Below are positions 14,707 to 31,884 of a stretch of DNA of 64,000 nt, in pieces (the first letter of the stretch is position 1; each line of letters begins with the position of its first letter). The notes under the pieces are model-generated. The model saw only the letters and a program-made list of their open reading frames with translations, searched no databases and was not told where the DNA came from. The DNA lies in NCBI RefSeq assembly GCF_048287415.1, contig NZ_JBLWEN010000001.1:88790-152789 (forward strand), in the 5' to 3' direction. The position numbers and the translations under genes were made by a program. The DNA comes from Candidatus Electronema sp. JM. Its GTDB lineage: Bacteria; Desulfobacterota; Desulfobulbia; Desulfobulbales; Desulfobulbaceae.

Positions 14707-17247
14707 CTATTCTGCTCCAGCTCTATCACTCTCCCCGCTGTCCTCCGCGCCGTCTTCCTCTGCCTCCACATCGCCGGATGAGCGCGCCAAGATGGACATG
14801 TCCACTACCTTTTCGCCCTCGCCGAGATTGATCATCCGCACGCCCTGCGTGTTGCGGCCAATCACCCGGAAGGAGTCCATGGGCAGGCGGATCACCTTGG
14901 CCGAGTTGGCGATCAGCATGACCTGATCGCTGTCCTCCACTTGCAGTGCGCCGACCACCAAGCCATTGCGCTCGCTGGTCTTGATGGTGGAGACACCCTT
15001 GCCGCCACGGCTTTGCAGGCGGTACTCAGAGATGGCTGTGCGCTTGCCGTAACCATTCTCAGTCACAGTGAGGATGGACGTGGACTCGCAGTCGCTCTTC
15101 TTCAGCACCACCGCGCCGACCACCTCGTCCTCGTCCACCAGCGTGATGCCCTTGACCCCGCTGGCGACGCGGCCCATCTCGCGCACGTCATCCTCATGGA
15201 AGTGAATGGACTGGCCGTGCCGCGTGACAAGGAAGACCTCGTCCTCGCCGGAAGTGACAGCCGCGCAGAGTATCTCGTCGTCCTCGCGGATGGTCAGGCC
15301 GATCTTGCCCTTGCGCATGGGCCGCTTGTACTCAGCGATGCTGGTCTTCTTGACGATGCCTTTCTTGGTCACCGTGAGGATGGAGAGGGCCTCGTCAGCA
15401 TGGGCAAGATCAGCTATGGGCAGGATGGCCGCCACCTTCTCGCCCTCGGCCAGCTCCAGCAGATTGACTATTGCCCGGCCTTTCGCTGTACGCCCGCCTT
15501 CAGGCAGCTCATAGACCTTGCGCCAGAAGACGCGGCCCCGGTTGGTGAAGAAGAGGAAGGTGTCGAGCGTCGAGGCGGCATACAGGCCGGAGACAAAGTC
15601 GTCCTTGACATCGGCCATGCCCGCCACGCCCTTGCCGCCGCGCCGCTGCGCCCGGTAGAGACTGAGCGCGGCGCGTTTGATGTAGCCATTGTGCGAGACG
15701 GTGACCACCATCTCCTCGTCGGCGATCATGTCTTCCGGCAGTATCTCATCCGCCGCCTCGATGATCTCCGTGCGCCGCGCGTCGCCGTACTGCTCGCGGA
15801 TCTCGCGGAACTCGTCGCGGATGATCTGCATGACCAGCGCGTCGTCCGCCAGTACCTTCTTCAGCCAGGCGATGCGCTCAAGGATCTCCGCATACTCCTG
15901 CATGATCTTGTCGCGCTCCAAGCCGGTGAGGCGTTGCAGGCGCATGTCCAAGATCACTTGCGCTTGCAGCTCGGACAGAGCGAAGCGCTCCATCAGCCCG
16001 GCCTTGGCCTCCGGCGGGCCAGCAGCGGCGCGGATCATGTCCACCGCCGCGTCGAGATTGTCGAGAGCGATCTTCAGCCCTTCTAAGAGGTGGGCGCGCT
16101 CCTCAGCTTTGCCTAAGTCAAAGGCGGTGCGGCGGTACACCACCGTGCGCCGGTGCTCCAAGAAGTGAACGAGCAGCTGCTTGAGGTTAAGTATCTCTGG
16201 CCTGCCGTTGACGATGCAGAGCATGATCACGCCGAAGCTCTTTTGCAGCGGCGTGAGGCTGTAGAGCTGGTTGATGGTCACGTCCGGGTTCTCGTCCCGC
16301 TTCAGATCCATGACGATGCGCAGGCCGTCGCGGTCAGACTCGTCGCGCACCTCGGCAATGCCCGGCAGCCGCTTCTCCTTCATCAGCAGAGCGATGCGCT
16401 GCACAAGATCGGCCTTGTTCTGCTGATAGGGCACCTCAGTAACAACGATGGCCTCGCCTTCGCCCTTTTTGCGCCGCTCCACGTGCAGCCTGCCGCGCAT
16501 GACGATCCTGCCGCGTCCCGTCTCGTAGGCCTCGCGGATGCCCGCTCTGCCGCAGATGAAGCCGCCGGTGGGGAAGTCCGGGCCGCTGATCTGCTCCAGC
16601 AGCTCCAGCACGCTGATGCCGGGCCGGTCAATCAGCGCGAGCAGGCCGTCCATCAGCTCGCTCAGATTGTGCGGCGGAATCTTGGTGGCCATGCCCACCG
16701 CGATGCCTTCCGAGCCGTTGAGAAGCAGGTTCGGGATGCGCGAGGGCAGGACGGTCGGCTCCTGCTGCGAGCCGTCATAGTTGGGAATGAAATCCACCGT
16801 GTCCTTCTCGATGTCCGCCACCAGCTCCTGATCCAGCCTGCTCATGCGGGCCTCGGTGTAGCGCATGGCCGCCGCCGAGTCGCCGTCCATGGAGCCGAAG
16901 TTGCCCTGGCCGTCCACGAGCGGATAGCGCAGCGAGAAGTCCTGGGCCATGCGCACGATGGTGTCGTACACCGCCGTGTCGCCATGCGGGTGGTATTTGC
17001 CGATCACGTCGCCGACGATGCGGGCCGACTTGACGTAGGGCCGGTTGTGGAATGTGCCCAGCTCGCGCATGGCGTAGAGGCAGCGCCGGTGCACCGGCTT
17101 GAGGCCGTCGCGCACATCAGGCAGGGCGCGGCCGACAATCACGGACATGGCGTAGTCCAGATAGGACTTGCGCAGCTCCTTCTCTATGTCAACGGTCTGA
17201 ATCGCTTCGGGCAGGACTTCGTCCTGCGCTGCTTCTACTGTGGTCAT
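14707..17247 (-). CDS. gyrA: DNA gyrase subunit A
   Basis: An 846-aa full-length match to the GyrA pattern: catalytic region [10 protein letters not shown], the QRDR-type segment [11 protein letters not shown], and a C-terminal beta-pinwheel with an acidic tail. Confidence 0.97.
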
Positions 17248-17713: not shown

Positions 17714-18586
17714 TTATTGTGGTGTTGCATTCTTACTGAAATATTTTTTCATGAGAATGAACCGTTCAACAGCGCAATCATTTCTAAGTTTCATGTATTT
17801 GCCATCAAATGGAGTTGGTGCATGCAGGCAGGCGAATTTTTCATCATATACAGTAAGCAGAACACCTCTCGCCCGTGTGAAGAAATCAGCATGTTCTAAT
17901 TTTTTAAGCTTGTTGTCCCAGCCGACTTTTTTTATCCTGTCTGTTCTGCAGATAAAAAAATTTGGCACTTTATCGTAAACAGGAAGGCCTGAAATTTTGC
18001 TGCCGATTGGAGCCACAGGCTGAGAATCAGTCGGATACAAACCTATCTTGCTGTAAGCATGAATTGTAAAAAAAGGAAGGTCAATCACCTTTCCTCCTAA
18101 TATATCAATTCTTGAATCAGAATCTATCAAATAAAGACTATCCTCTATCTTTGTTTTTCTGAAAAAGACAAAATCGTCATCTAAAAAAAGCGTGTACTTT
18201 GTTGCAACGCAACCTAACGCCGCATTTCGTCCTGCGGATATGCCTGAATTATATGGCATGGTTATCTTCTCAACGCTCTTGACTTCTTCTGGATGCAGAC
18301 TGTCATCAACTACAATAATTTTAATAGATGGATAATATTTCCTTATACTCCGCAGAAGACGGACAAGTGCTTTGTAACGTTCAAATGTTTTTATAACAAT
18401 CGTTAGTTCATTCAGCAGCTCGCTGTTGCTTGGAGCGGCAGGTTTTAGTGAATCAAGAAAATTTTGCAGTGCCAATTCAAGATAAATAACAAAATCGTAA
18501 AAAAATTTAGCAACAAATTGAACCCTGCTGCCCATCAGAGCATATTTTATCTTTTTCAGATAAAAAAAAGCGATATTTTTATTCAT
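17714..18586 (-). CDS. Family-2-like glycosyltransferase, strongly AT-rich
   Basis: LTIVIKTFERY...IKIIVVDDS and FLDDDFVF resemble GT-A fold DxD motifs. A hand count of 18101-18200 gives 27% GC. Confidence 0.6.
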   Translation of the reverse strand: MNKNIAFFYLKKIKYALMGSRVQFVAKFFYDFVIYLELALQNFLDSLKPAAPSNSELLNELTIVIKTFERYKALVRLLRSIRKYYPSIKIIVVDDSLHPEEVKSVEKITMPYNSGISAGRNAALGCVATKYTLFLDDDFVFFRKTKIEDSLYLIDSDSRIDILGGKVIDLPFFTIHAYSKIGLYPTDSQPVAPIGSKISGLPVYDKVPNFFICRTDRIKKVGWDNKLKKLEHADFFTRARGVLLTVYDEKFACLHAPTPFDGKYMKLRNDCAVERFILMKKYFSKNATPQ

Positions 18587-19502
18587 GCGACTTGCTTTCC
18601 TTCATTAAATTTTGTTGTTTCTGCTCCTGTAAGCTGGCCAGTTCCTCGCCGGACAGGCCAGTGCTGGCAGCAATAACCTCCAGCGCGACACCGTGCGCCA
18701 GCAGGCTGCGGGCAACAGCGAGCTTCTCCTCACGTTTTCCCTGTTCCATGCCTTGTGCCATGCCCTTCGCCAAGCCATCCTTCTCCGCCTTGGCCAGCGC
18801 TCCCTGCTGGAGCATGATGAAGTCCCGGCGTTTGAACTGCATCTCCAGCTCCTCCTCGTTCAGGGCGGCAGTGTTGGCCAAATCAAAGGCATCAAGCAGC
18901 GGCGGCTCAGTGAAGGTCTTGGGGATGAAGTCAAGGCTGCCAGCGTGCTTGATGAAGTATATCCATTTATCGGTGACGGAATCCAGCTCAGTCTCGCTTT
19001 TGCTGAATTTTGGCAGCTCGATGAAGATCAGCTCAATGTCGCCATTGTACTGAACAAGCTGCTCTTTTTCTCTGAGATCCCAATACGAAATAGCCTTGCC
19101 GAACTCAGGGAACATCGCAAAGTCGGTGATGGTCAGGGCTATGACCGGCTCCAAGCTGGCGTAGTGCTGCGAGCGTTTGAGCTGAGATGAGTAAAGTTTG
19201 GCGGCGTTGTACAACACCCGCTTCTCAAAGCCCTCGACATTCAGCACCTGCATCTCGACGATCACCCTGCGCTGATTGGACAGCACCGCCTTCACGTCCA
19301 CATAGCTGTCTTTCATGCCTTTTAATAGCGGCACCTGATACGGATCAACTATGGTCAGGTCGGTAATTTGCGCATCTTCAAAGTCAATCACGGCATTGAG
19401 GAAGTCAATCAGGATGCCTTTTGACTGCTCGCTGCCGAAGTTTGGCAATCTCTTCTTCAGATAATCCCGTGCTGGCAGCGATGACCGCCGATGCAACGCC
19501 AT
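18579..19502 (-). CDS. Rpn-family (YhgA-like) PD-(D/E)XK recombination-promoting nuclease / putative transposase, paralog 2
   Basis: LIDFLNAV...DLTIVDPY...DSYVDVKA....VIVEMQV shows the nuclease core pattern, with a helical C-terminal tail (LLAHGVALEVIAASTGLSGEEL). Start is uncertain: ATG at 19502 or TTG at 19523. Either start overlaps the upstream paralog by about 100 nt. Confidence 0.65.
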   Translation of the reverse strand: MALHRRSSLPARDYLKKRLPNFGSEQSKGILIDFLNAVIDFEDAQITDLTIVDPYQVPLLKGMKDSYVDVKAVLSNQRRVIVEMQVLNVEGFEKRVLYNAAKLYSSQLKRSQHYASLEPVIALTITDFAMFPEFGKAISYWDLREKEQLVQYNGDIELIFIELPKFSKSETELDSVTDKWIYFIKHAGSLDFIPKTFTEPPLLDAFDLANTAALNEEELEMQFKRRDFIMLQQGALAKAEKDGLAKGMAQGMEQGKREEKLAVARSLLAHGVALEVIAASTGLSGEELASLQEQKQQNLMKESKSHE

Positions 19503-20286
19503 GCGCCAGCAGATTGCGGGCAATAGCGATTTTTTCTTCGTATTTCCCTTCGGTGCGTCCCTCTTCCTTTGAAGACCAGAGCATGGACTGCTGATACGAC
19601 ATATTTAGCATATATTCATCATAGGCTTTGCGCTGCGGCTCATCTAAATTCATCATCCGCAGCCGTGCCGAGGCTTCTTGGATATGCTTGGCCCTGAAAT
19701 CAGGGCGCACTTCGCTGTGCTTGAGCATGTAAATCCATTCATCCAATCCAGACTGCACTTTATCGGGGAAATCCTCAACGCGAATAAGGTAATGCTCAGG
19801 AAATATTTTGCGCACATCGCTGATGCCGAACAGCTCCTGCTGTCTGTTGCTCAGGCTGAGTATATCTTTGCTGTGAACGCCGACAAAATTGGTGGAGCCG
19901 TAATAGAGATAATCTGTGCCGATGCCAAGACTGAAATAGGTGATGCTGACCGAGATGATTTTTTTGATTTCCCGGTACGGCTGGCCTTTTTCTAAATATT
20001 CGGTCATCAGTTTGGCGACACCGTAGGCGATGCGGTGGAAGAAATCGTATTCCGATTTCACCTGCACTTCAATCAGCAGCAACTCGCCTTTGCTGTTTTC
20101 AACCAGCAAATCAACGCGGTTGAATTTATCGAGGCTGTCTTCCTGATTGCTTTCGCTCTCCAAGAGATTGACGACGGTGACATCTTCATCAAGCACGGCA
20201 GTGAGGAAGCCTTCCAGAACGGAAAAATTGGCTTTGTCGCGCAGCAGCTTTTTGATAGCCCAGTCAAAGCGGATGAGTTTTTCCAT
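19405..20286 (-). CDS. Rpn-family (YhgA-like) PD-(D/E)XK nuclease, paralog 1
   Basis: DWAIKKLLRDKANFSVLEGFLTAVL...FNRVDLLVENSKGELLLIEVQV shows the D...E.Q core. The C-terminal tail LLAHGVASAVIAASTGLSEEEI is paralogous to that of the downstream gene. Confidence 0.7.
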   Translation of the reverse strand: MEKLIRFDWAIKKLLRDKANFSVLEGFLTAVLDEDVTVVNLLESESNQEDSLDKFNRVDLLVENSKGELLLIEVQVKSEYDFFHRIAYGVAKLMTEYLEKGQPYREIKKIISVSITYFSLGIGTDYLYYGSTNFVGVHSKDILSLSNRQQELFGISDVRKIFPEHYLIRVEDFPDKVQSGLDEWIYMLKHSEVRPDFRAKHIQEASARLRMMNLDEPQRKAYDEYMLNMSYQQSMLWSSKEEGRTEGKYEEKIAIARNLLAHGVASAVIAASTGLSEEEIAKLRQRAVKRHPD

Positions 20287-20376: not shown

Positions 20377-21864
20377 CTATCGGCTGACACCAGCTTTGCG
20401 CTGGGCTATATCATCCAGTGCTTGCTGAAGCAACTTGGCCTTAGGGTGTTTCATTTTCTGATACAGGTGCAGGCTCCTCTTCCAAGCTGCTTCCGCCTGA
20501 TCAAAATTACCGTATGTCACATACACGCTGCCCAAATTTCCGTATGTGCTCGCCGTTGCTTCTTTTAGCCCCAAGGCTTCGCTGATCTCAAGGCTCTTTC
20601 TGTACATCTCCTCCGCCTTGCCCAATTCGCCGTGTTTGAAGTGTATACTACCCAAATTAGCATACTGTATTGCTGATGTTTCCTTCAACCCCAAGGCTTC
20701 GCTGATCTCAATGCACATCTTGGACATTTTTTTCGCCTTGCCCATCTCGCCGCGTCTTGCATACATATTGCCCAGATTGCCATAATCTTGCGCCATGCAT
20801 TCCCTGCGCCCCAAGGTTTCGTGGATCGCAAGTGCTTTCATGTACATCTCCTCTGCCTCGTCCATCTCGCCGCGCGTAAAGTGTGTATTACCCAGATTGG
20901 CGTACTGGTTCGCTGTTGCTTCCGTCAGTTCCAAGGCTTCGCTGATCTCAAGGCTCTTTTTGTACATTTCCTCTGCCTTGCCCTGCTCGCCACGTATCCT
21001 ATACACATTACCCAGATTCCCGTAATCTTTCGCCATGCCTTCCTTGCGCCCCAAGGTTTCGTGGATCGCAAGTGCTTTTATGTACATCTCCTCCGCCTTA
21101 TATAGCTCACCGCGTGTGCGATACACATTGCCCAGATTACAAATAGCGATTCCCTGTAGCTCGTTGTCCTGATTTGCCTCGCCCAAGGCCAGCACCTTGT
21201 AGTATGCCTCTTCGGCCTGCGCAAATTCCCCTGTGCGGAGGAGTAAGGTGGCAAGCATATTCCAGCCCTCCGCATTGTCCGGGTCAAGCTCCACAGCCTT
21301 CTGATATGCAGTTAGGGCTGCCTTGGTATCGCTCATAAAGGCCAATGCGCCCAAATGCCGGGCGGCGGCGGCTGCTTCCTTGTTCGCCTTCCTTCCTTCT
21401 GCCTCCTTGGTCTTCAGCACTTCAGCAAAGATGGCTTGAGCCAGTTCGGTACGCCCCTGCTCCAAAGCCTTCAAGGCTTCGTTGATGCTCTTTGGTGGCG
21501 CATCCGTCTTGGACAGAGCAGCAATTGCTTCCGTTAATGCCTTGATCTGCTCGTCTTTGGCCTCCAACTGCCCTTGCAATAGCTTTACGGCCAGCTTTCC
21601 CGCATCAACTGCCGGTGCCTTGTCCATGTATTTGTTCCAAACCGCAAGGAAAAAGCCAAGCACCGTCACACTCATCCCAAGCTGGAAGCCATAGGCGAGC
21701 ATCAACTTGATGATCATGCCTGACTCCTCTGGTGAAGGCGGTTGCAGCAGCTTAGAGTCAATGAGCTTAGTGTGGATGCCAAAGACAAGCATCAGGACAA
21801 AGCCCACTAGCACCAGCGGGACAGCCAGATACTTGGCAATCTTCTCAAAGTCTGTGAAGTTCAT
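20377..21864 (-). CDS. Membrane-anchored TPR-repeat protein
   Basis: Two N-terminal TM helices, a coiled-coil stretch, then about 8 TPR units of the YGNLGNVYRxRGExxKAEEMYxKxLxI type. The units are repetitive at the DNA level. Confidence 0.8.
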   Translation of the reverse strand: MNFTDFEKIAKYLAVPLVLVGFVLMLVFGIHTKLIDSKLLQPPSPEESGMIIKLMLAYGFQLGMSVTVLGFFLAVWNKYMDKAPAVDAGKLAVKLLQGQLEAKDEQIKALTEAIAALSKTDAPPKSINEALKALEQGRTELAQAIFAEVLKTKEAEGRKANKEAAAAARHLGALAFMSDTKAALTAYQKAVELDPDNAEGWNMLATLLLRTGEFAQAEEAYYKVLALGEANQDNELQGIAICNLGNVYRTRGELYKAEEMYIKALAIHETLGRKEGMAKDYGNLGNVYRIRGEQGKAEEMYKKSLEISEALELTEATANQYANLGNTHFTRGEMDEAEEMYMKALAIHETLGRRECMAQDYGNLGNMYARRGEMGKAKKMSKMCIEISEALGLKETSAIQYANLGSIHFKHGELGKAEEMYRKSLEISEALGLKEATASTYGNLGSVYVTYGNFDQAEAAWKRSLHLYQKMKHPKAKLLQQALDDIAQRKAGVSR

Positions 21865-22336: not shown

Positions 22337-25300
22337 TCACACATCCAGCTCAGAAACCTCCAGCGCGTGGTTCTGGATGAACTCGCGCCGTGGCTCGACC
22401 TTGTCGCCCATCAAGGTGACGAACAAATCATCCGCAGCCTCGGCATCCTCAATCCTGACGCGCAGCAGGGTGCGGTTGGCCGGGTTCATGGTCGTCTCCC
22501 AAAGCTGCTCCGGGTTCATCTCGCCCAAACCTTTATACCGCTGCAAATGACTGCCCCGGAAGGTCTCCTCGCGGACAACACGAATCAGCTCGCGCCAATT
22601 TTTAGCCGGAATTTCCTTCTCCTGACCAGAGGCCGCATTCTTGCAGAGGGTGAAACTGCTGCCGATGTGCTCCCTGATTTCAGGATAGAGATCAAGACCG
22701 AGCCGGTATTCGGGAATCAGCGGAATATGCGGCCCGATGACCGCACGGGTGTGGGCCAAACCTTGAAAGGCCGCCTCCGCCTCAAAGCAACTGGGCCGGG
22801 ACGCGCAAACGCGAATGCCGCTGGTGACGGCATTGATGCTGGCGAGCTTATCCAGCAGCCCGTGCAGGAACGCCTCCTCCTTGAATTGATCCGCAGAATG
22901 GACATCGTTTTCAAGCAGGAAGAGGGTGAGCTGCTCCTGAATGTTCATCCGTTCCAAGAAGGTGCTGATGCGCTCAAACAGGGTGAGCTTCTTCAGCAAA
23001 CTGACCAGTTCCTGCCCGGCCAGCACGCTGCCGTTCTCCAAGCGGACTTGCACAAACTGGGCCGCCTGATCGTAAAGGTGGTTGTTGAGCGCGTCCTCAT
23101 CCAGGAAATATTGCTCCTTCTTGCCCCGGCCCAAGCGATAAAGCGGCGGCTGGCCGATATAAACATAGCCTTGCTCGACCAGCGGCAGCATCTGGCGATA
23201 GAAGAAGGTGAGCAGCAAGGTGCGGATGTGCGCGCCGTCCACGTCCGCGTCGGTCATGATGATGATCTTGTGGTAGCGCAGCTTGCTCGCATCAAACTCC
23301 TCCCGCCCGATGCCGGTGCCCATTGCGGCGATCAATTGCTTGATCTCCTCCGAGTCGAGAATCTTGTCGAAACGTGCCTTCTCCACATTCATGATCTTGC
23401 CGCGCAACGGCAGGATGGCTTGGATGGAGCGGTCGCGGCCTTGCTTGGCACTGTTGTGAACAAACACGCCGCTGGCTAAAGCAAAATTGTGCGTGTTCGG
23501 CACTTCGATGTCGTACACATCAATACGCTCGGTCAGCTTCTCCACTGAGACAACGCGGTGGTTGTAATTGCTCACCGCTTCCAGAGCGCGTTCGGTGTTG
23601 TTATCAAAATACCGCTGGCAGAAGGTGTCAAAGCGCAGCAATGATTTGTCCTTTGTGGCAATGCGGTGCTGGCGGTAGCCTTCAAGATCAACTGCGCCGG
23701 GCCGCAGCTCGTGCCGCTTGAGCACGGCCAAAGTTTTCCGGTAATACGTCTGCTGCAACGCAGCTTGGCGGCGGGCGCGGAACTCTGCTGTCCATTGCTG
23801 CTGAGTTTTCTGACTGCGCCACGCCAGCAGCTCGGCATCGCTCCATTGCTCTTTCGCCTTTCGTGACTGCTCCGCACGGGCTTCCGGGTGCTCTTCAAAA
23901 TAGGAACGCACCCGTTCAGCTTGGGCCAAGCGGTTTTCCTCATCCTGCCAGTAGATTTTCTGCGCCTCATTCAACAAAGCGGCATTTTGCTGGCGATATT
24001 CTGCGTTGCTGCGGTAGAACTCCCGCCATTTGTCGGCCATGAAGGCTTTGTACGCCGCATCGTCCCATTGCACTTGAGCGCGTTCAGAGAGCTGCTGCCG
24101 CAACTGCATCATGCGTTGGCTCATCTTGGTGCGGAATTCAGGACTCTGCCGGACAGCCCGACTCTTTTCGATCACATCGGGCCGACGCAGGGTTCGGTCA
24201 GCGTGCTGCCGATGCAGGCGCAAATGCTCTTCCGCCGGAAGCCGCCGGATGTTGGAGGGATTGTTGTTGCGCTTATTGAAATCAAGGTGATGCCGATGTT
24301 CGCCATCTTCAGCCTGATAACCACCTGCCTTGCAGTTATATTTATCGGCAAGGACATGTGTGAATTTCCAGCGGCTGGCATTTGGTTCCCAAACCATTTC
24401 ATAGCCGTCAATGGTGATGCCCGGTTCATTCATATCCGAGAGCTTGCGATACAGCGGCATCAAAGAAGTGCCGACAGTCAGCCGTTCTGCCGGGCAATAG
24501 CTGCCATCGCGAAGCAGGAAGCGGTGATCCGGGGTGCAGACAATCTGCTCGCCATTGTCCAGCGTCACCTGCACAACTTCCTGCTGCCGCTTAGTCAGGC
24601 GCGGATGCAAAATCCGTTCGAGGCCAATCTTGCCGTCTGCTTGAATGGTGTAGCAGAAATGCTCTTTGCCCTGCTCCTGCTCGGCGATCAGCTCCAAAAA
24701 GCTGAGGGCGCGGCCATCGGCCAAAGCCACTTTGGTCTCGCCAGAAAAGCAGCCGCCCGCTGAATCGCCCTCCACGAGAAACAGCTCGCGCTCTGCCGGA
24801 TTCTTCGACTGGCATTCAGCCAGCTTGCCTGCCATCAGCAGAGAAATGCCGTCCTTCTTGCGTGACAAATCACGCGCCTTCCGCGCCGCTTCTCTGGCCC
24901 GCGCCGCCTCGACCGCCTTGCTGAGTATCTGCCGCGCCACCTGCGGGTTGCGCTCCAAGTAATCGCCAAGCTGCTCGGTGCAGATGGAAGCGACGATGCC
25001 CTTCACCTCGGAGTTGCCCAGCTTGGTCTTGGTCTGACCCTCGAACTGCGGATTCGGCACCCGCACTGAAATGATTGCAGTCAGGCCCTCGCGCACATCA
25101 TCGCCCTCCATTTTCTCCTTCATGTGCTTGGGCACAATGTCATCAGTGGCGTATTTGTTGATGCACTTGGTCAGCGCGGCGCGGAAACCCGCCACATGCG
25201 AGCCGCCTTCGCGGGTGTTGATGTTGTTGACAAAGGAAGCCAGCCGCTCAGTGTAGCTGTCCACATATTGCAGACAGACCTCGACCTGCACCTGCTCCTG

Positions 25301-26047
25301 CTCGCCTTCCAGAAAGATCGGCTGCGGATGAATCGGGGTGCGGTTGCGGTTCAGGTGCTCGACATATTCAACCACGCCGCCTTCATAATGAAACACATCC
25401 TCAGCCCCGCTTTGCTCATCCTTCAGGGTGATGTGAACGCCCCGATTGAGAAAAGCCAGCTCGCGCAGCCGGTTGAGGACGATCTCGTATTTGAACACAA
25501 CCGTCTGGGTGAATATCTCCGGGTCTGGCTTGAAAGTAATCGTGGTGCCGGTGTGCTCGCTGGTGCCAACCACCTCCAGCTCGCTGGTCTTTGCGCCGTA
25601 AGAGAAGGTCTGCCGGTAGAGCTTGCCGTTGCGCCGCACCTCAGCGGTGACATGGGTGGAGAGCGCATTGACCACCGACACGCCCACGCCGTGCAATCCG
25701 CCGGAAACTTTATAGGACGAATGATCGAACTTGCCGCCCGCGTGCAAGGTGGTCAGCACCAGCTCAAGAGCGGTCATGTTTTCCGTCGGATGCTTGTCCA
25801 CCGGAATGCCGCGTCCGTTGTCTTCGACCGAGCAGGAACCGTCCTCCAGCAGGATCACCTTAATCTGGTTGCAGTATCCGGCCAGAGCCTCGTCAATCGA
25901 GTTGTCCACCACCTCGTAAATCAGATGATGCAGCCCTTCTTCCGCCGTGTTGCCGATATACATGGACGGACGCTTGCGCACCGCCTCAAGCCCGTCAAGA
26001 ACCTTGATCTGATCCGCCCCGTAGGACGTGTTCTGCTGTTCGCTCAC
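22337..26047 (-). CDS. gyrB: DNA gyrase subunit B, interrupted by an intein
   Basis: GTG at 26047 (AGAAGG 7 nt upstream) gives the canonical N-terminus [31 protein letters not shown]. The GHKL ATPase, transducer and Toprim (EGDSAGG / SAKQGRDR) regions are present. The extein totals about 803 aa once the 433-aa insert is removed. Confidence 0.95.
23453..24751 (-). mobile_element. GyrB intein (433 aa) with HNH-type endonuclease insert
   Basis: The insert lies between EGDSAGG and SAKQGRD. Block [11 protein letters not shown] (Cys codon 24751-24749), block B TPDH, block [15 protein letters not shown], block G VFVHN|S (Asn codon ends at 23453). Internal HNH motif [29 protein letters not shown]. 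Confidence 0.9.
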
Positions 26048-26352
26048 TTGCTTGCCTTCTCTGAAGAATTTATACGGAAAACGGCATGGTTGCGATGCGG
26101 CGCGCCGCATCCTGCCGGAAGCGGCTCATCATACCATAGTTCCGGCAAAAACGGGGAAAAATCTGCGGTTTGCAAGGAATTTTATCCAGATGGCCGCGCC
26201 GCCGCCAAGGAGCATTCCAGCGCGGAGCACTGCTGGCAAAATATGCAATAACGAAGAAAACAGGAACAGCCTGAATACAGTGGCATTTTTTCGCTACGAC
26301 TGGTATGATGGGCGGAGCTTGCCATTTTTATTTTTCATTGAGGAGAAGCGTT

Positions 26353-27045
26353 ATGGAATATTCCCACGAAGTCAAAGAGATGTGCTGCGTCACCAAGGGG
26401 CCGGATCACGGACCTTCGCCCATCCCGCAGGAAGGGCAGTGGAATCAGGTGCGGCAGATCAGCGAAATCAACGGCCTGAGCCATGCGGTCGGCTGGTGCG
26501 CTCCGCATCAGGGGGCCTGCAAGCTGACCTTGAACGTCAAGGGCGGCATTATTGAAGAAGCCTTGGTTGAAACCGTCGGCTGCACCGGCATGACCCATTC
26601 CGCAGCGATGGCGGCGGAAATCCTGCCCGGCAAGACCATTCTGGAAGCCCTGAACACCGACTTGGTCTGCGACGCGATCAACGTGGCCATGCGCGAGTTC
26701 TTCAAGCAGATCAGCTATGGCCGCACACAATCCGCCTTCTCGGAAGGCGGCCTGCCTATCGGCGCGGGCTTGGAGGATTTGGGCAAGGGGCTGCGCACCG
26801 TCACCGGCACCACCTACGGCACCCGCCTGAAAGGGCCGCGCTACTTGGAGCTGGCCGAGGGCTACATCATGGAGCTGGGGCTGGATGCCAACGACGAGAT
26901 CATCGGCTACAAATTCCTCAGAATCGGGCCTATGCTCGACGCGATCAAAAAGGGCGTTGATCCGGCAGAGGCGATGGCCAAGGCCACCGGCACCTACGGA
27001 CGCTTCGCCGAGGCCGTCAAAACAATTGATCCCCGGAAGGAGTAA
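26353..27045 (+). CDS. NifU-N/IscU-like scaffold-domain protein (partner of GGGtGRT protein)
   Basis: ATG at 26353 with GAGGAGAAG RBS. The Cys-containing segments VGWCAPHQGACKL and VGCTGMTHSAAMAAEIL resemble IscU/NifU N-domain motifs. Confidence 0.6.
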   Translation: MEYSHEVKEMCCVTKGPDHGPSPIPQEGQWNQVRQISEINGLSHAVGWCAPHQGACKLTLNVKGGIIEEALVETVGCTGMTHSAAMAAEILPGKTILEALNTDLVCDAINVAMREFFKQISYGRTQSAFSEGGLPIGAGLEDLGKGLRTVTGTTYGTRLKGPRYLELAEGYIMELGLDANDEIIGYKFLRIGPMLDAIKKGVDPAEAMAKATGTYGRFAEAVKTIDPRKE

Positions 27046-27050
27046 CTATC

Positions 27051-28052
27051 ATGGCGCTTTTTGAAGGATACGAACGGAGAATCAGCAAGATCAACGCGGT
27101 GCTGGCCGAACACGGGATCAAGGATTTGGATGCGGCCAAGCAGCTCTGTTTAGATGCGGGCGTGGATGTCTATGCCATTGTCAAGGGCGTGCAGCCGATC
27201 TGCTTTGAGAACGCCTGCTGGGCCTACATCGCCGGTGCGGCCATTGCTTTGAAAAAAAGGCAGAAAAAGGCGGTGGAAATTGCCTCCACTTTGGGCATCG
27301 GCTTGCAGGCCTTTTGCATTCCCGGCTCAGTGGCCGAAAACCGCAAAGTGGGCATTGGTCACGGCAACTTGGCCGCCCGGCTCCTTAGCGAGGAAACAAA
27401 GTGCTTCGCCTTTCTCGCCGGGCATGAGTCCTTTGCCGCTGCGGAAGGCGCCATCGGCATTGCCAGATCCGCCAACCGGGTGCGCACTGAGCCGCTGCGG
27501 GTCATCCTCAACGGCCTCGGCAAAGACGCGGCCTATATCATCTCGCGCATCAATGGCTTCACCTATGTGAAGACACAGTACGACTACTACAGCGGCGCAC
27601 TCAACATTGTTGAGGAAAAGGCGTTTTCCAGCGGCGAGCGGGCCAAAGTGCGCTGCTACGGCGCGGATGACGTGCGCGAGGGCGTGGCCATCAACCACTT
27701 GGAGCTGGTCGATGTGTCCATCACAGGCAACTCGACCAACCCGACCCGCTTCCAGCATCCGGTGGCCGGAACGTACAAGAAGGAATGCCTTGAGCAGGGC
27801 CGGAAGTATTTCTCGGTGGCTTCCGGCGGCGGCACAGGCCGGACGTTGCACCCAGACAACATGGCCGCTGGTCCGGCTTCTTACGGCATGACCGACACCA
27901 TGGGCCGGATGCACAGCGACGCGCAGTTCGCCGGCTCGTCCTCCGTGCCTGCGCATGTCGAAATGATGGGCTTTATCGGCATGGGCAACAATCCGATGGT
28001 TGGCGCATCAGTGGCGGTGGCAGTGGCCTTGCAGCAGGCGGCGGGGCAGTAA
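27051..28052 (+). CDS. GGGtGRT-family protein (function unknown)
   Basis: Contains the family-defining SGGGTGRT motif (FSVASGGGTGRTLHPDN). It starts 5 nt after the upstream gene's stop. Confidence 0.8.
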   Translation: MALFEGYERRISKINAVLAEHGIKDLDAAKQLCLDAGVDVYAIVKGVQPICFENACWAYIAGAAIALKKRQKKAVEIASTLGIGLQAFCIPGSVAENRKVGIGHGNLAARLLSEETKCFAFLAGHESFAAAEGAIGIARSANRVRTEPLRVILNGLGKDAAYIISRINGFTYVKTQYDYYSGALNIVEEKAFSSGERAKVRCYGADDVREGVAINHLELVDVSITGNSTNPTRFQHPVAGTYKKECLEQGRKYFSVASGGGTGRTLHPDNMAAGPASYGMTDTMGRMHSDAQFAGSSSVPAHVEMMGFIGMGNNPMVGASVAVAVALQQAAGQ

Positions 28053-28272: not shown

Positions 28273-31200
28273 ATGCGCATCCTCAAACTCCGCCTGCGCA
28301 ACCTCAACTCCCTTGTCGGCGGGTGGGAGATTGACTTCACCCACCCGGCCTTTGCCGACGGCATCTTCGCTATCACCGGCCCAACCGGCGCAGGCAAGAC
28401 CACTATTCTCGATGCGCTCTGCCTCGCGCTGTATGGCCGCACGCCGCGCTTGGATAAAGTGACGAAGCGCGGCAATGAGATTATGTCTCGGCAGAGCGGC
28501 GAATGCTTTGCCGAGGTGGAATTCTCGGTCGGCAAGGAGGCCCGCCGCTGCTCCTGGAGCCAAGGCCGCAGCCGGAAAAAGGCGGACGGAGAACTTCAGC
28601 AGCCGAAGCGCGAGCTGTCGCTGCTCAACGGCGAGATTCTTGCCAGCAGCGTCAGCAGCGTGGAACAGCTTGTTGAGGAATGCACCGGCATGGATTTCGA
28701 CCGCTTCACCCGCTCCATGCTGCTCGCGCAGGGCGGTTTCGCCGCCTTTCTCCAAGCCTCGCCGGATGAGCGTTCGCCGATTTTGGAGCAGATCACCGGC
28801 AGCACAATTTACAGCGAGATATCCATCCGTGCGCATGAACGCTGGAAACGCGAAAACGACCGCCAGAAGCAGCTTGAGGAACAGGCGGCGGCCTTCCAGC
28901 TTCTCAGCTTGGAAGAAGAGGACGTGCTGCGGCAGGAGCTGGACAGGCTGCGCGGCGAGGTGCGCGTTCAGGGCGACAGGCTGACGCAGCTTGATGCCGC
29001 TCTGAAATGGCTGAAGCGACTTGCTGATCTACGCCAAGACGTGGCAGCGGTCAGCAGGGAGCAGGCCGGGCTGGCTGCGGCGCAAGAGCAGTTTGCCGCC
29101 AGCGAGCAGCGGCTGCGTCTGGACGGACTGGCCCTGCTTGTAGCTGGGGAGCACGCCGCCTTGGCCGCCCGGCGTAAGCAGCAGGCGGATGATCTCAGTG
29201 CAGCGGCAATCTTACGCCGCAGCCTGCCGGAGCTGGAAGCCGCGCTCAAGGCGGCAGACGGGCGGTTGGTCAGCAGCGGCGATGCGCTTGCAGCAGCCAA
29301 AGCAGCGCAGGAGACAGGCCGCGTCCTTATCACCAAAGTGCGCGAGCTGGATTTTCGCTTGCAAGAGAAGCGGGCCGCGCTGCGCAAGCAGGACGAAGCC
29401 TGCGCCGAATTGCGCCGGAAAAATGCTGCTGATCTCGCCGCCTGCGGGAAGCTGGAGCAGGAGCTGCGGCGTGTTCAGGATAGTCAGCAGCAGAGTGCGG
29501 CTTATCTGGCGAAACATGCGGCAGACGAGCGGCTGCTGACAGACTTGACCGGTCTCGGTCAGCAATTGAAGCAGCTTGGCGAGCTGGCCTGGCGGCATGA
29601 GGATGTCAGGCTCGCAGCGGCACTTGCTGAGAAAACCGCTGCCGAGGCGGCGCAGTTCTGGCAGGGCAAAGCTGCGGCGCGGCGCAAGGCGGATGAGCTG
29701 CTTGCCGAAGTGCAAGAGGCACGGGCGGCGGCGGACAACGAATTTGCTCAGCTCCTGCAAGGCCGCCGGGCTGAGGAGCTGTGGCACGAGCAGAACGCCT
29801 TGATCACGCTGACCAAGCTGCTGGCCCAAGCAGATATGCTGGCCAAGGAGCGGGCTGATCTGCATGAGCAGCAGGTTGCGAACAGCGTGGCCAAACAGGT
29901 GCTGGCAGAGACGCTGCGCACGCTGCGGCAGCACTGCAATGCGGCACGGCAGGAGGAGGAAGTCCGGCGGATTGAAGCGGACTTTGCCAAGCGCGTGCTC
30001 AGTCTGGAGGAGCAGCGGGCGCGGCTTCAGGCCGGACAGCCGTGTCCGCTCTGCGGCTCGCCGGAGCATCCCTACGCACAGGGCGGTTTACCTTTGCTGC
30101 ATCAGGCCGAATTGGCCGCGCAGGCAGCCGCTGCGGCCTTGCGGCAGGCTGAGGAAGCTCTGAACAAGGCGGACAAAGAGCAGGCGCGGTTAGATCAGGC
30201 TGCCCAGCATCTCGATGAGCGTCTGACTGAGAAGAACACGGCCATGCAGGCACTTCAGCAGCAGACAGCCAACTGCTGCGCCGAGCTGGCTCTGGTGCCG
30301 GAGCAGCAGCTGTCGGAAATTGAGCAGCGGCTGCATGAGAATCGGCAGACCGTGCAGGCCGCTGAGGCATTGACCAAGAAAATCAGCCAGCTTGGCAAAA
30401 CGCTGGAGCAGCGGCAGGCCGCCTGCATCCAAACTGCGCAGGATGAAAGCAAGGCCGCTGCTGCGCGGGATAAGGCGCAGGAGGCGCGGCAGCGTCTGGC
30501 TGAGGAAGAGCGCAATTTAGCAGAAGATGTGGCGGTAAAGCTGCGGGCGGCGCAAACTGAGCTAGCGGTGTACGGCTGCGCTGAGTTCTCGCTGCGGGAG
30601 ATTGACCAAACCGCCATTGCGTTGACCACCCGCCGCGACACATGGCAGCGGCATCAGCAGCAGCGTATTGCGGCGGAGCAGAAGATTGCCGGGCTTGATA
30701 CAGACGTAAAGGTGCTGCGGGCGGGCATTGAGCAGCGGAACAGGCAGCTTGAGCACGAGGAGCCGCTGCTGCAAGCAGGACGGCAGGAGGCGGAACGGTT
30801 GGCCGCTGAACGGGCCGCGCTCTTTGCCGACAAGCAGCCGGAAGCGGAAGAAAAGCGGCTGGCTGAGGCGGTCAAAGCGGCGGAGCAGGCCGTTGAGCAG
30901 GCGCAGGCGGCGCAGCAGCGACAAGAGAAAACGCTGCATCAGCAACACGCCCTGATCAGCAGCCGGGAGCGTGCCGCTGCGGACAGGATGCCGGAGCTGG
31001 CGCGGCAGGAGGCAGCCTTTGCCGAACGGCTGCGGGCGGGCGGTTTTGCCGATGAAGCGGCTTGGCAGACGGCGCAGCTTGCTGAGGCGGAGCGGGCGGC
31101 CTTGCGGCGGCAGGCGGAAGAGCTGCGTGACCGCCGGACACAGCTTGACGAGCGGCGGCGCGACCGCGAAGCCCGCTTGGCCGAGGAGGAGCAATTAGCC

Positions 31201-31884
31201 CTCACCGACTTGGATCAAGCGCGGCTGGAGGAGGAGCAGGCCGGGCTGACGCTCGCCAGCCGCCGGACAGCGGAGCAGATCGGCTCGCTGACGCAGCGGC
31301 TTGCTGACAACCAGGAGCGGCGCGGCCAGCAGAGCGGCCTGCTCCGTGAGCTGGCGGCGCAGAAAACAGAATGCCTGCGCTGGAAAAGCCTGCATGACCT
31401 GATCGGCTCGGCGGACGGCAAAAAGTACCGCAACTTTGCTCAAGGACTGACCTTTGAGCAGATGGTGCTGCACTCCAACCGCGAGCTGGCCCGCATCCAC
31501 AGCCGCTATCTGCTCCTCCGCGATCCGCAGCAGCCGCTGGAGCTGAGTGTGGCTGATTTCGAGCAGGCGGGCGAAGTCCGCTCCGTCAAAAATCTTTCCG
31601 GCGGCGAGAGCTTCATGGTCAGCCTCGCTCTGGCCCTCGGTTTATCAAGCATGGTCGGCGGCAAGGTGGAATCCCTCTTTCTTGATGAGGGCTTCGGCAC
31701 CTTGGACGACGACGCGCTGGACTCCGCCTTGGCCCGGCTGGCCGAGCTGCGCGGCGAAGGGCGGCTGATCGGGGTGATCTCGCATGTGGCCGCGCTCAAG
31801 GAGCGGATTGCCTGCCAGATTGAGGCCCTGCCCGGCAGCGGCGGGCGGAGTGTGCTGAAAGGGCCGGGCGTGCGGCGGCTGTGA
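28273..31884 (+). CDS. sbcC: SbcC-type SMC-like ATPase (exonuclease subunit C)
   Basis: Walker A GPTGAGKTTILDA, about 900 aa of Ala/Gln/Glu/Arg coiled coil with a central zinc hook CPLCGS, signature LSGGESF, and Walker B LFLDEGFGTLD. Confidence 0.9.
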   Translation: MRILKLRLRNLNSLVGGWEIDFTHPAFADGIFAITGPTGAGKTTILDALCLALYGRTPRLDKVTKRGNEIMSRQSGECFAEVEFSVGKEARRCSWSQGRSRKKADGELQQPKRELSLLNGEILASSVSSVEQLVEECTGMDFDRFTRSMLLAQGGFAAFLQASPDERSPILEQITGSTIYSEISIRAHERWKRENDRQKQLEEQAAAFQLLSLEEEDVLRQELDRLRGEVRVQGDRLTQLDAALKWLKRLADLRQDVAAVSREQAGLAAAQEQFAASEQRLRLDGLALLVAGEHAALAARRKQQADDLSAAAILRRSLPELEAALKAADGRLVSSGDALAAAKAAQETGRVLITKVRELDFRLQEKRAALRKQDEACAELRRKNAADLAACGKLEQELRRVQDSQQQSAAYLAKHAADERLLTDLTGLGQQLKQLGELAWRHEDVRLAAALAEKTAAEAAQFWQGKAAARRKADELLAEVQEARAAADNEFAQLLQGRRAEELWHEQNALITLTKLLAQADMLAKERADLHEQQVANSVAKQVLAETLRTLRQHCNAARQEEEVRRIEADFAKRVLSLEEQRARLQAGQPCPLCGSPEHPYAQGGLPLLHQAELAAQAAAAALRQAEEALNKADKEQARLDQAAQHLDERLTEKNTAMQALQQQTANCCAELALVPEQQLSEIEQRLHENRQTVQAAEALTKKISQLGKTLEQRQAACIQTAQDESKAAAARDKAQEARQRLAEEERNLAEDVAVKLRAAQTELAVYGCAEFSLREIDQTAIALTTRRDTWQRHQQQRIAAEQKIAGLDTDVKVLRAGIEQRNRQLEHEEPLLQAGRQEAERLAAERAALFADKQPEAEEKRLAEAVKAAEQAVEQAQAAQQRQEKTLHQQHALISSRERAAADRMPELARQEAAFAERLRAGGFADEAAWQTAQLAEAERAALRRQAEELRDRRTQLDERRRDREARLAEEEQLALTDLDQARLEEEQAGLTLASRRTAEQIGSLTQRLADNQERRGQQSGLLRELAAQKTECLRWKSLHDLIGSADGKKYRNFAQGLTFEQMVLHSNRELARIHSRYLLLRDPQQPLELSVADFEQAGEVRSVKNLSGGESFMVSLALALGLSSMVGGKVESLFLDEGFGTLDDDALDSALARLAELRGEGRLIGVISHVAALKERIACQIEALPGSGGRSVLKGPGVRRL

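Follow-up and report, generated by a model that had tools for sequence, protein, structure and literature searches.

The window analysed here, a stretch of 64,000 nucleotides from the freshwater cable bacterium Candidatus Electronema sp. JM, carries on its reverse strand a gyrB gene that is interrupted in frame by an intein. A sequence-only reading of this DNA had described an insert of 433 amino acids (aa) in the Toprim motif of GyrB, with intact splicing blocks, an HNH-type homing module and a Trp-rich helical region, in a host judged to be deltaproteobacteria-like. Mapping of the translation onto the DNA returns exactly these boundaries (Table 1), which are fixed because orthologues (P0268 and others) have an uninterrupted EGDSAGG-SAKQGRD. 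The host guess was also correct, since Electrothrix, the sister genus of Electronema, and the other close GyrB relatives belong to the Desulfobulbaceae, formerly of the Deltaproteobacteria. We read the insert as an intact, bifunctional class-1 intein of the GyrB HNH-intein allele in a cable-bacterium gyrB, and give this reading a probability of roughly 0.85. Its anatomy is in five parts, on which predicted models, conservation data and natural deletion variants agree.

The gyrB gene starts at the GTG at 26045-26047 and not at the ATG at 26110 that opens the mechanically derived reading frame (22337..26110, minus strand); the product read from the GTG matches the NCBI/UniRef GyrB of Candidatus Electronema sp. 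JM (P0269, 1236 aa) at 100% identity. The 21 additional N-terminal codons of the longer frame (window 26045-26110) are probably untranslated. The GTG has AGAGAAGG before it. Exact-product look-ups of the longer frame, of a neighbouring gene and of P0269 returned no record.

Table 1. Features of the gyrB locus and its surroundings, in window coordinates
Feature	Position	Strand	Remarks
gyrB coding sequence including intein	22337..26047	-	1236 codons plus stop, GTG start; TIGR01059 3.5e-289
N-extein: ATPase and transducer domains, first part of Toprim up to EGDSAGG	24752..26047	-	Pfam HATPase_c, DNA_gyraseB; translation checked
Whole intein, 433 aa, Cys1-Asn433	23453..24751	-	exactly between EGDSAGG and SAKQGRD
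HINT N-lobe, intein aa 1-104	24440..24751	-	block A Cys1, block B T73-P-D-H76
HNH module, aa 105-186	24194..24439	-	beta hairpin and helix (GYEMVW...), then beta-beta-alpha-metal motif
HNH core, aa 152-180	24212..24298	-	H155, N167, H176
Helical tandem-repeat array, aa 187-346	23714..24193	-	about nine units of 13-20 aa each; presumed DNA-binding arm
Small beta element and three-helix module, aa 347-396	23564..23713	-	possibly helix-turn-helix-like
HINT C-lobe, aa 397-433	23453..23563	-	blocks F and G (VFVHN); TIGR01443 2.9e-7; kept in all mini-inteins
C-extein: Ser+1 (SAKQGRD), rest of Toprim, C-terminal domain, stop	22337..23452	-	Pfam Toprim, DNA_gyraseB_C; translation checked
gyrA, no intein	14707-17247	-	about 5 kb from gyrB
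Family-2 glycosyltransferase	17714-18586		between gyrA and gyrB
PDDEXK_2 (Rpn-type) transposase-like gene	18579-19523		between gyrA and gyrB; adjoins second such gene
PDDEXK_2 (Rpn-type) transposase-like gene	19405-20286		between gyrA and gyrB
TPR protein	20377-21864		between gyrA and gyrB
246-aa open reading frame	26305-27045		divergent, upstream of gyrB; no Pfam match
GGGtGRT-family protein	27051-28052		divergent, upstream of gyrB; E 1e-193
SbcC/Rad50-like ATPase	28273-31884		after the GGGtGRT gene

The splicing domain

The HINT fold of a class-1 intein is present, and intein models recognise both of its ends (TIGR01445 at 6e-11 and, at the C-terminus, TIGR01443). In an alignment of 45 sequences T73 and H76 of the TPDH block (aa 73-76) are invariant and P74 is at least 90% conserved, while Cys1 is invariant in an alignment of nine sequences; VFVH432-N433 closes the intein, and the C-extein begins with Ser at +1. 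The canonical splicing blocks are thus all in place, as had been claimed. A sequence search of solved structures with the whole intein returned matches to intein splicing domains only. We discount a PAS_3 match (E 5e-4) as spurious; its span, aa 43-87, belongs to the beta structure of the HINT fold.

By the standard four-step pathway the HINT domain (aa 1-104 together with aa 397-433) would excise the 433-aa insert after translation, through an N-S acyl shift at Cys1, transesterification to Ser+1, cyclisation of Asn433 and a final O-N shift. EGDSAGG would be joined to SAKQGRD and the catalytic Toprim motif of the gyrase restored. We infer splicing of this GyrB from its intact motifs. That the insert is instead a lineage-specific domain of GyrB without intein blocks, the alternative that the sequence-only reading had itself raised, is exceedingly improbable: the HINT fold and every splicing block are there, GyrB proteins that are 96-98% identical to that of the window lack precisely this insert, and across phyla the insert is more alike than the protein that hosts it.

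The HNH nuclease module

Inserted into the HINT domain is a homing module that had been assigned to the HNH type and not to LAGLIDADG. The assignment stands, with matches of the intein to HNH endonuclease families of PHROG (4.5e-10, 1.5e-7 and 8.4e-7) and with viral fold neighbours that are almost all HNH or homing endonucleases. A strand-strand-helix arrangement is predicted at aa 152-186, and H154, H155, D157, N162, N163, P165, N167, R170, H176 and H180 are invariant or at least 90% conserved among 45 homologues. By analogy with the HNH_3/I-HmuI pattern, H155 is presumed to be the general base and N167 and H176 to be the structural and metal-binding residues. Weighing against the assignment, the Pfam HNH_3 model scores 20.1 bits against a gathering score of 24.8 (E 5e-4) and matches only three of nine family members at all; Pfam and NCBIfam searches of the insert otherwise gave intein models only, besides the rejected PAS_3. 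In a classification of His-Me finger nucleases the "Gyrase subunit B intein" forms an HNH_3 group of its own, with which a dCTP deaminase intein is grouped (PMC5714182).

When phages were searched with tblastn only the HNH part gave matches (four records), and the helical array had no phage homologue. Among viral structures, the nearest neighbour of the endonuclease module is a 539-aa "Hint domain-containing protein" of Bacillus phage SP-15 (BFVD A0A127AYL6), which aligns over 308 columns (E 4e-4) and also gives a tblastn match to the HNH part (KT624200.1 12966-13205); it is apparently another HNH intein of like layout in a different host gene. The model NF052663 of NCBIfam ("intein-containing RtcB family protein") matches intein aa 1-433 at 130 bits through an intein segment of 233 positions, and therefore a related, shorter intein resides in RtcB-like proteins.

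Distribution and horizontal spread

A protein search with the intein alone gave 966 matches, most of them named GyrB or "intein-containing DNA gyrase subunit B", from cyanobacteria, Chloroflexota, Methanosarcinales/Methanoperedens, Patescibacteria, Nano- and Woesearchaeota, Thermoplasmatota, Campylobacterales and others. In a genome scan that took one genome per species at least 570 genomes carried a relative. Intact inteins could be extracted between SAGG and S from 77 of the 80 best loci, 76 of them 434-436 aa in length and one of 430 aa. The insertion site is identical in all 77, many of which are cyanobacterial. The earlier suggestion that cyanobacterial GyrB inteins sit at this very point proved right, both for the site and for homology over the full length. 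Hosts among the best loci include Trichormus, Dolichospermum, Microcystis, Nostoc, Anabaena, Anaerolineae and Blastocatellia, as well as Capsulimonadaceae, Abditibacteriota, Rubrobacter and Methanoperedens; Acidobacteriota are also among the phyla with a homologue at this site. Over 433 aa the identity to the window intein is 47-67% in the nine-sequence alignment and 45-67% in that of 45 sequences, with E down to 6e-194.

The GyrB HNH-intein allele has been known since the 1990s. Its type example, which we take to be the 435-aa "Ssp GyrB" intein of Synechocystis sp. PCC 6803, was reportedly presented as the first HNH intein by Dalgaard et al. in 1997. The title of the 1997 paper on the first HNH intein is cited in PMC3359363, and the Ssp GyrB intein is in use as an engineered mini-intein and split intein (PMC3620165). 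Our literature search found no paper that combines inteins with cable bacteria.

The sequence-only reading had also proposed horizontal spread and suggested a phylogeny against other GyrB inteins. At 66 loci compared with the window the intein is on average 62% identical, while the adjacent 300 aa of the N-extein are 49% and 150 aa of the C-extein 56% identical, and intein and extein identities are not correlated (r = -0.17). The intein is therefore more conserved than a highly conserved host protein, which argues for horizontal spread. The four full-length cable-bacterial inteins group together in a neighbour-joining tree, and nested among them is a copy from an uncultured Anaerolineaceae metagenome-assembled genome (L001; CAZSFD010000038.1, 3001-4305). 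At 73% identity this is the closest intein outside the cable bacteria, while its Chloroflexota host GyrB is merely 45-57% identical to that of the window. With the Anaerolineaceae copy inside, strict monophyly of the cable-bacterial inteins has a support of 5/30, and bootstrap resolution is low. The nesting suggests transfer of the intein between phyla that are neighbours in sediment; a chimeric contig is a less likely source of L001.

The homing cycle in cable bacteria

Cable bacteria hold alleles at every stage of the homing cycle. Full inteins of 433-435 aa are found in Electronema sp. JM, in two metagenome relatives and in Electrothrix sp. AU1_5. Mini-inteins that have lost aa ~102-385 occur in E. 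aureum (181 aa), in P0278 (189 aa) and in Electrothrix gigas and P0305 (155 aa). The site is empty in Electronema PJ, VV, JC and V4, in Electrothrix AR4, GW3-4 and aestuarii, and in most of the other Desulfobulbaceae listed. GyrB of strain PJ has no intein and is 98.3% identical in protein to that of the window, and those of JC and V4 (799 aa, also without intein) are 95-96% identical. Electronema PJ and VV carry EGDSAGGSAKQGRD without interruption, and the empty gyrB site of PJ reads TTTCTCGTGGAAGGAGATTCAGCAGGAGGG followed directly by AGTGCCAAGCAAGGCCGCGACCGCTCCATC.

The exteins of Electrothrix gigas (P0311, with the 155-aa intein) and Electrothrix sp. AU1_5 (P0315, with the 435-aa intein) are 99.5% identical, and therefore the endonuclease deletion is very recent. 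In this pair the natural mini-intein boundaries lie after SLMPLY and before ...ALE.V..HNHRVV.

A trace of homing itself may be preserved in the flanks of the insertion. The exteins of JM and PJ differ by 7.2% in DNA. The 21 nt immediately 5′ of the insertion hold five synonymous differences, and the 31 nt on its 3′ side hold none. The 5′ flank codons GAG GGC GAT TCx GCx GGC GGC are common to all three intein-bearing Electronema alleles and differ in both empty ones, while over the remainder of the N-extein PJ and E. aureum are the closest pair. This pattern looks like a co-conversion tract left by homing, although it is drawn from five alleles only, which weighs against it. The AGY codon of Ser+1 was also considered as a marker of intein-bearing alleles and was rejected, as the empty PJ allele has AGT as well.

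Is the endonuclease of the window copy still intact?

Of the 162 positions with a conservation of at least 90% in the family, the window intein retains 157, and it is most likely active in both splicing and homing. Two features count against this: five deviations at conserved positions (R37Q, M79L, D95T, H189R and T217L) and a deletion of 2 aa in repeat unit 2, neither of which touches the splicing or HNH motifs. It could be argued that the intein splices but that its endonuclease is dead, so that the element is a vertically inherited passenger on its way to a mini-intein or to loss and no homing would start from this allele. Such a state would fit with close relatives that have lost the endonuclease (the mini-inteins of 181, 189 and 155 aa) or the whole intein, with a length of 433 and not 435 aa, with H189R and T217L lying within the array, and with intein identity that within cable bacteria roughly tracks extein identity, as under vertical descent. 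However, every conserved HNH residue is present, the same 2-aa gap is found in P0060, another full-length member, all endonuclease regions are under purifying selection across the family, and the flank codons held in common by intein-bearing alleles suggest homing within Electronema. We consider a dead endonuclease unlikely, and prefer a functional one.

A tandem array of Trp-containing helices

The region between the HNH motif and the C-terminal module had been described as helical with recurring W-containing units, and the strings quoted for it are all present, at aa 226-324. Judged from its sequence this Trp-rich region is a true tandem repeat. Its division into about nine units was made by eye and from helix boundaries; each unit opens with [S/T/N/D]-[P/D/E]-E-x-R and most close with QW, YW or FY, and eight helices are predicted with pLDDT above 90. 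When the family profile was aligned with itself in HHalign, aa ~203-241 aligned with aa ~270-315 (E 7e-6), which points to an internal duplication. In the natural variant P0090 a deletion fuses one AKxQW unit straight onto another, the product to be expected of recombination between repeat units.

Across 78 sequences drawn from many phyla, all six Trp residues of the array (W229, W242, W268, W303, W311 and W320) show 99-100% conservation. The median dN/dS of the array is 0.146, compared with 0.11-0.13 in the HINT lobes and 0.11-0.27 over every region of the intein, values taken from the 80 best matches, a set that favours intact copies and to that extent weakens the case. Purifying selection thus constrains the array to the same degree as the splicing domain. 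It is basic, with a pI of 10.0 and a net charge of +10 in the window copy and a family median of +16. One family member has an Asp/Glu-rich array of net charge -19, of the acidic-proteome type, and yet keeps all Trp residues and the unit pattern; a purely electrostatic argument for DNA binding therefore fails for that copy. A search of solved structures with the array profile gave nothing meaningful, the best match being a viral capsid protein at E 1.4.

The same type of repeat in other nuclease proteins

A search of 1.84 billion representative proteins with a profile built on aa 187-396 yielded 369 matches. These comprise GyrB inteins and their fragments, together with proteins that contain 3-6 matched stretches each and align to the intein array at whole-library E values of 8e-18 to ~1e-8. 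The latter carry regular repeats of 17-19 aa, such as SERMKKYFEDHPEARKE or WQDPEYRxKMSExxKxxW. Pfam applied to 32 non-GyrB repeat proteins finds GIY-YIG in seven, SegE-type GIY-YIG in one, DUF559 in three, and Vsr, phage endonuclease I and REase_MTES_1575 in two each, as well as NUMOD1, NUMOD3 and I-HmuI NUMOD-like domains. Examples are P0210, P0258 and P0228 for GIY-YIG proteins, P0230, P0261 and P0263 for those like DUF559/Vsr, and P0222 and P0265 for those like endonuclease I. An HNH-like motif accompanies the repeat in P0245, P0238 and P0219, seen by eye or as a weak Pfam match. P0245, in which Pfam finds no domain, has by eye an HNH-like motif, about ten repeats and a possible C-terminal helix-turn-helix, and so appears to repeat the order of parts of the intein module. 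Very long and regular arrays of the 17-aa WQDPEYR type are present in P0193 (597 aa), P0237 (537 aa) and P0211 (733 aa). Pfam recognises no nuclease domain in the first two, whereas P0211 combines its array with REase_MTES_1575 and a Mom-family domain; a Pfam "GerD" call on the arrays of all three is probably an artefact of the repeat motif.

The sequence-only reading had ventured that the array binds DNA. This is the best supported of the readings considered and stays an inference: the array is most likely a DNA-binding or DNA-tracking arm of the homing endonuclease, because the same type of repeat recurs in free-standing GIY-YIG, HNH-like, Vsr/DUF559 and endonuclease-I-like proteins. Without DNA binding, the array could have a structural role, as a spacer or scaffold that links the HNH to the C-terminal module, or modulate splicing, and its likeness to the repeats of other proteins would reflect a common helix-capping motif and not a shared function. 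We regard this as improbable, given that the array is basic in nearly all members (median net charge as above) and as constrained as the splicing domain. Many of the 32 non-GyrB proteins also have nuclease domains, of several unrelated folds, or NUMOD-type domains, an association characteristic of DNA-binding modules that accompany nucleases. Natural mini-inteins, moreover, are splice-competent in sequence and entirely without the array, which is therefore dispensable for the HINT fold.

Beyond a DNA-binding arm in this intein, we tentatively suggest that the Trp/Pro-Glu units form an undescribed family of nuclease-associated tandem DNA-binding repeats, distinct from NUMOD3 and common to HNH inteins and free-standing nucleases. 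No dedicated Pfam model recognised the units in the searches made. The reading as a DNA-binding arm has its own caveats: large bias terms accompany the HMMER matches in the other nuclease proteins, and the shared helix-capping motif (D/S-P-E-aromatic) also draws the Pfam models GerD and STI1 DP; part of the similarity could therefore be convergent on a generic capping motif. If the suggestion of a separate family is right, each 17-19-aa helix would contact a successive stretch of the target and the number of units would set the length of the recognition site, and the units might be modular and open to rearrangement.

Significance

As an intein the element adds little, as the allele is long known, others of its kind are annotated automatically by NCBI and this very protein is already public, named simply GyrB. 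What modest interest there is beyond this comes from the snapshot of the homing cycle that cable bacteria offer and from the link from the array to an unnamed nuclease-associated repeat. In Electronema and Electrothrix full, endonuclease-deleted and empty gyrB alleles occur among very close relatives, making a compact natural system for the homing cycle, and the natural mini-inteins show exactly where the dispensable endonuclease module begins and ends, information of use to engineers of inteins. There is a practical concern as well, because gyrB is a common phylogenetic marker and such length variants can confuse marker-gene pipelines. The array, for its part, ties the intein endonuclease to a broad repeat that stands beside several nuclease folds and is a concrete candidate for a modular DNA-binding repeat, seemingly uncharacterised so far.

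Gene neighbourhood

The genes around gyrB are listed in Table 1. In strain PJ (L081) a SEC-C protein followed by two PDDEXK_2 genes lies downstream of gyrB, so this region is variable among strains. An Rfam scan of the whole window gave no match and hence no rRNA.

Comparison with known systems

NUMOD3 is the minor-groove-binding helix repeat of I-TevI, I-BmoI and I-HmuI. Like it, the intein array is a tandem series of short helical units (~17 aa) beside a homing nuclease, and some of the other proteins with the repeat contain NUMOD1, NUMOD3 or I-HmuI NUMOD-like domains. The first intein unit, QS[P/D]EFR[T/A]KMS[Q/E]RM, resembles the NUMOD3 pattern, and NUMOD3 (PF07460) is the sole Pfam match for this consensus segment. 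The match counts against membership: it concerns the family consensus of unit 1 only, at 12.7 against 20.4 bits (E 0.13), the window sequence itself is not matched, and the Pfam model fails even on arrays of at least ten copies (P0210, P0193 and others; E up to 0.1). The array units also differ in ending with a conserved Trp or Tyr and not with Gly-Lys. Because the match lies below the gathering score we describe the array as NUMOD3-like; it would work like NUMOD3 while not being detectably a member.

The free-standing nuclease repeat proteins have units far more regular and more numerous (up to ~15) than those of the intein, whose array can be taken as a diverged, shortened version of their repeat; none of these proteins has a described function.

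I-HmuI is the intron-encoded HNH nicking endonuclease of phage SPO1 (PDB 1U3E). Its plan joins an HNH domain, a NUMOD3 minor-groove helix and a helix-turn-helix (PMC3664794), and the order of parts in P0245 appears to match it. The intein module (aa 105-396) would place in series an I-HmuI-like HNH nuclease, about nine short basic Trp helices and the small three-helix module. It differs in that I-HmuI is free-standing and intron-encoded, whereas here the nuclease is nested within a HINT domain, and in having about nine Trp-containing units (160 aa) in place of one or two NUMOD3-type helices. The endonuclease would recognise, and cut or nick, an intein-less gyrB near the codons for EGDSAGG and SAKQGRD, and repair from an intein-bearing allele would then copy the intein in. 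The helical array would lie along the DNA and give a long recognition site, in the manner of the NUMOD3 helix and helix-turn-helix of I-HmuI and I-TevI.

Close counterparts are the cyanobacterial GyrB HNH inteins, which occupy the same host protein at the same point of the Toprim domain, between SAGG and S, with lengths of 434-436 against 433 aa and 56-67% identity over their whole length, the HNH, array and C-terminal module included. The window intein differs from them in its cable-bacterial host and in the 2 aa missing from repeat unit 2.

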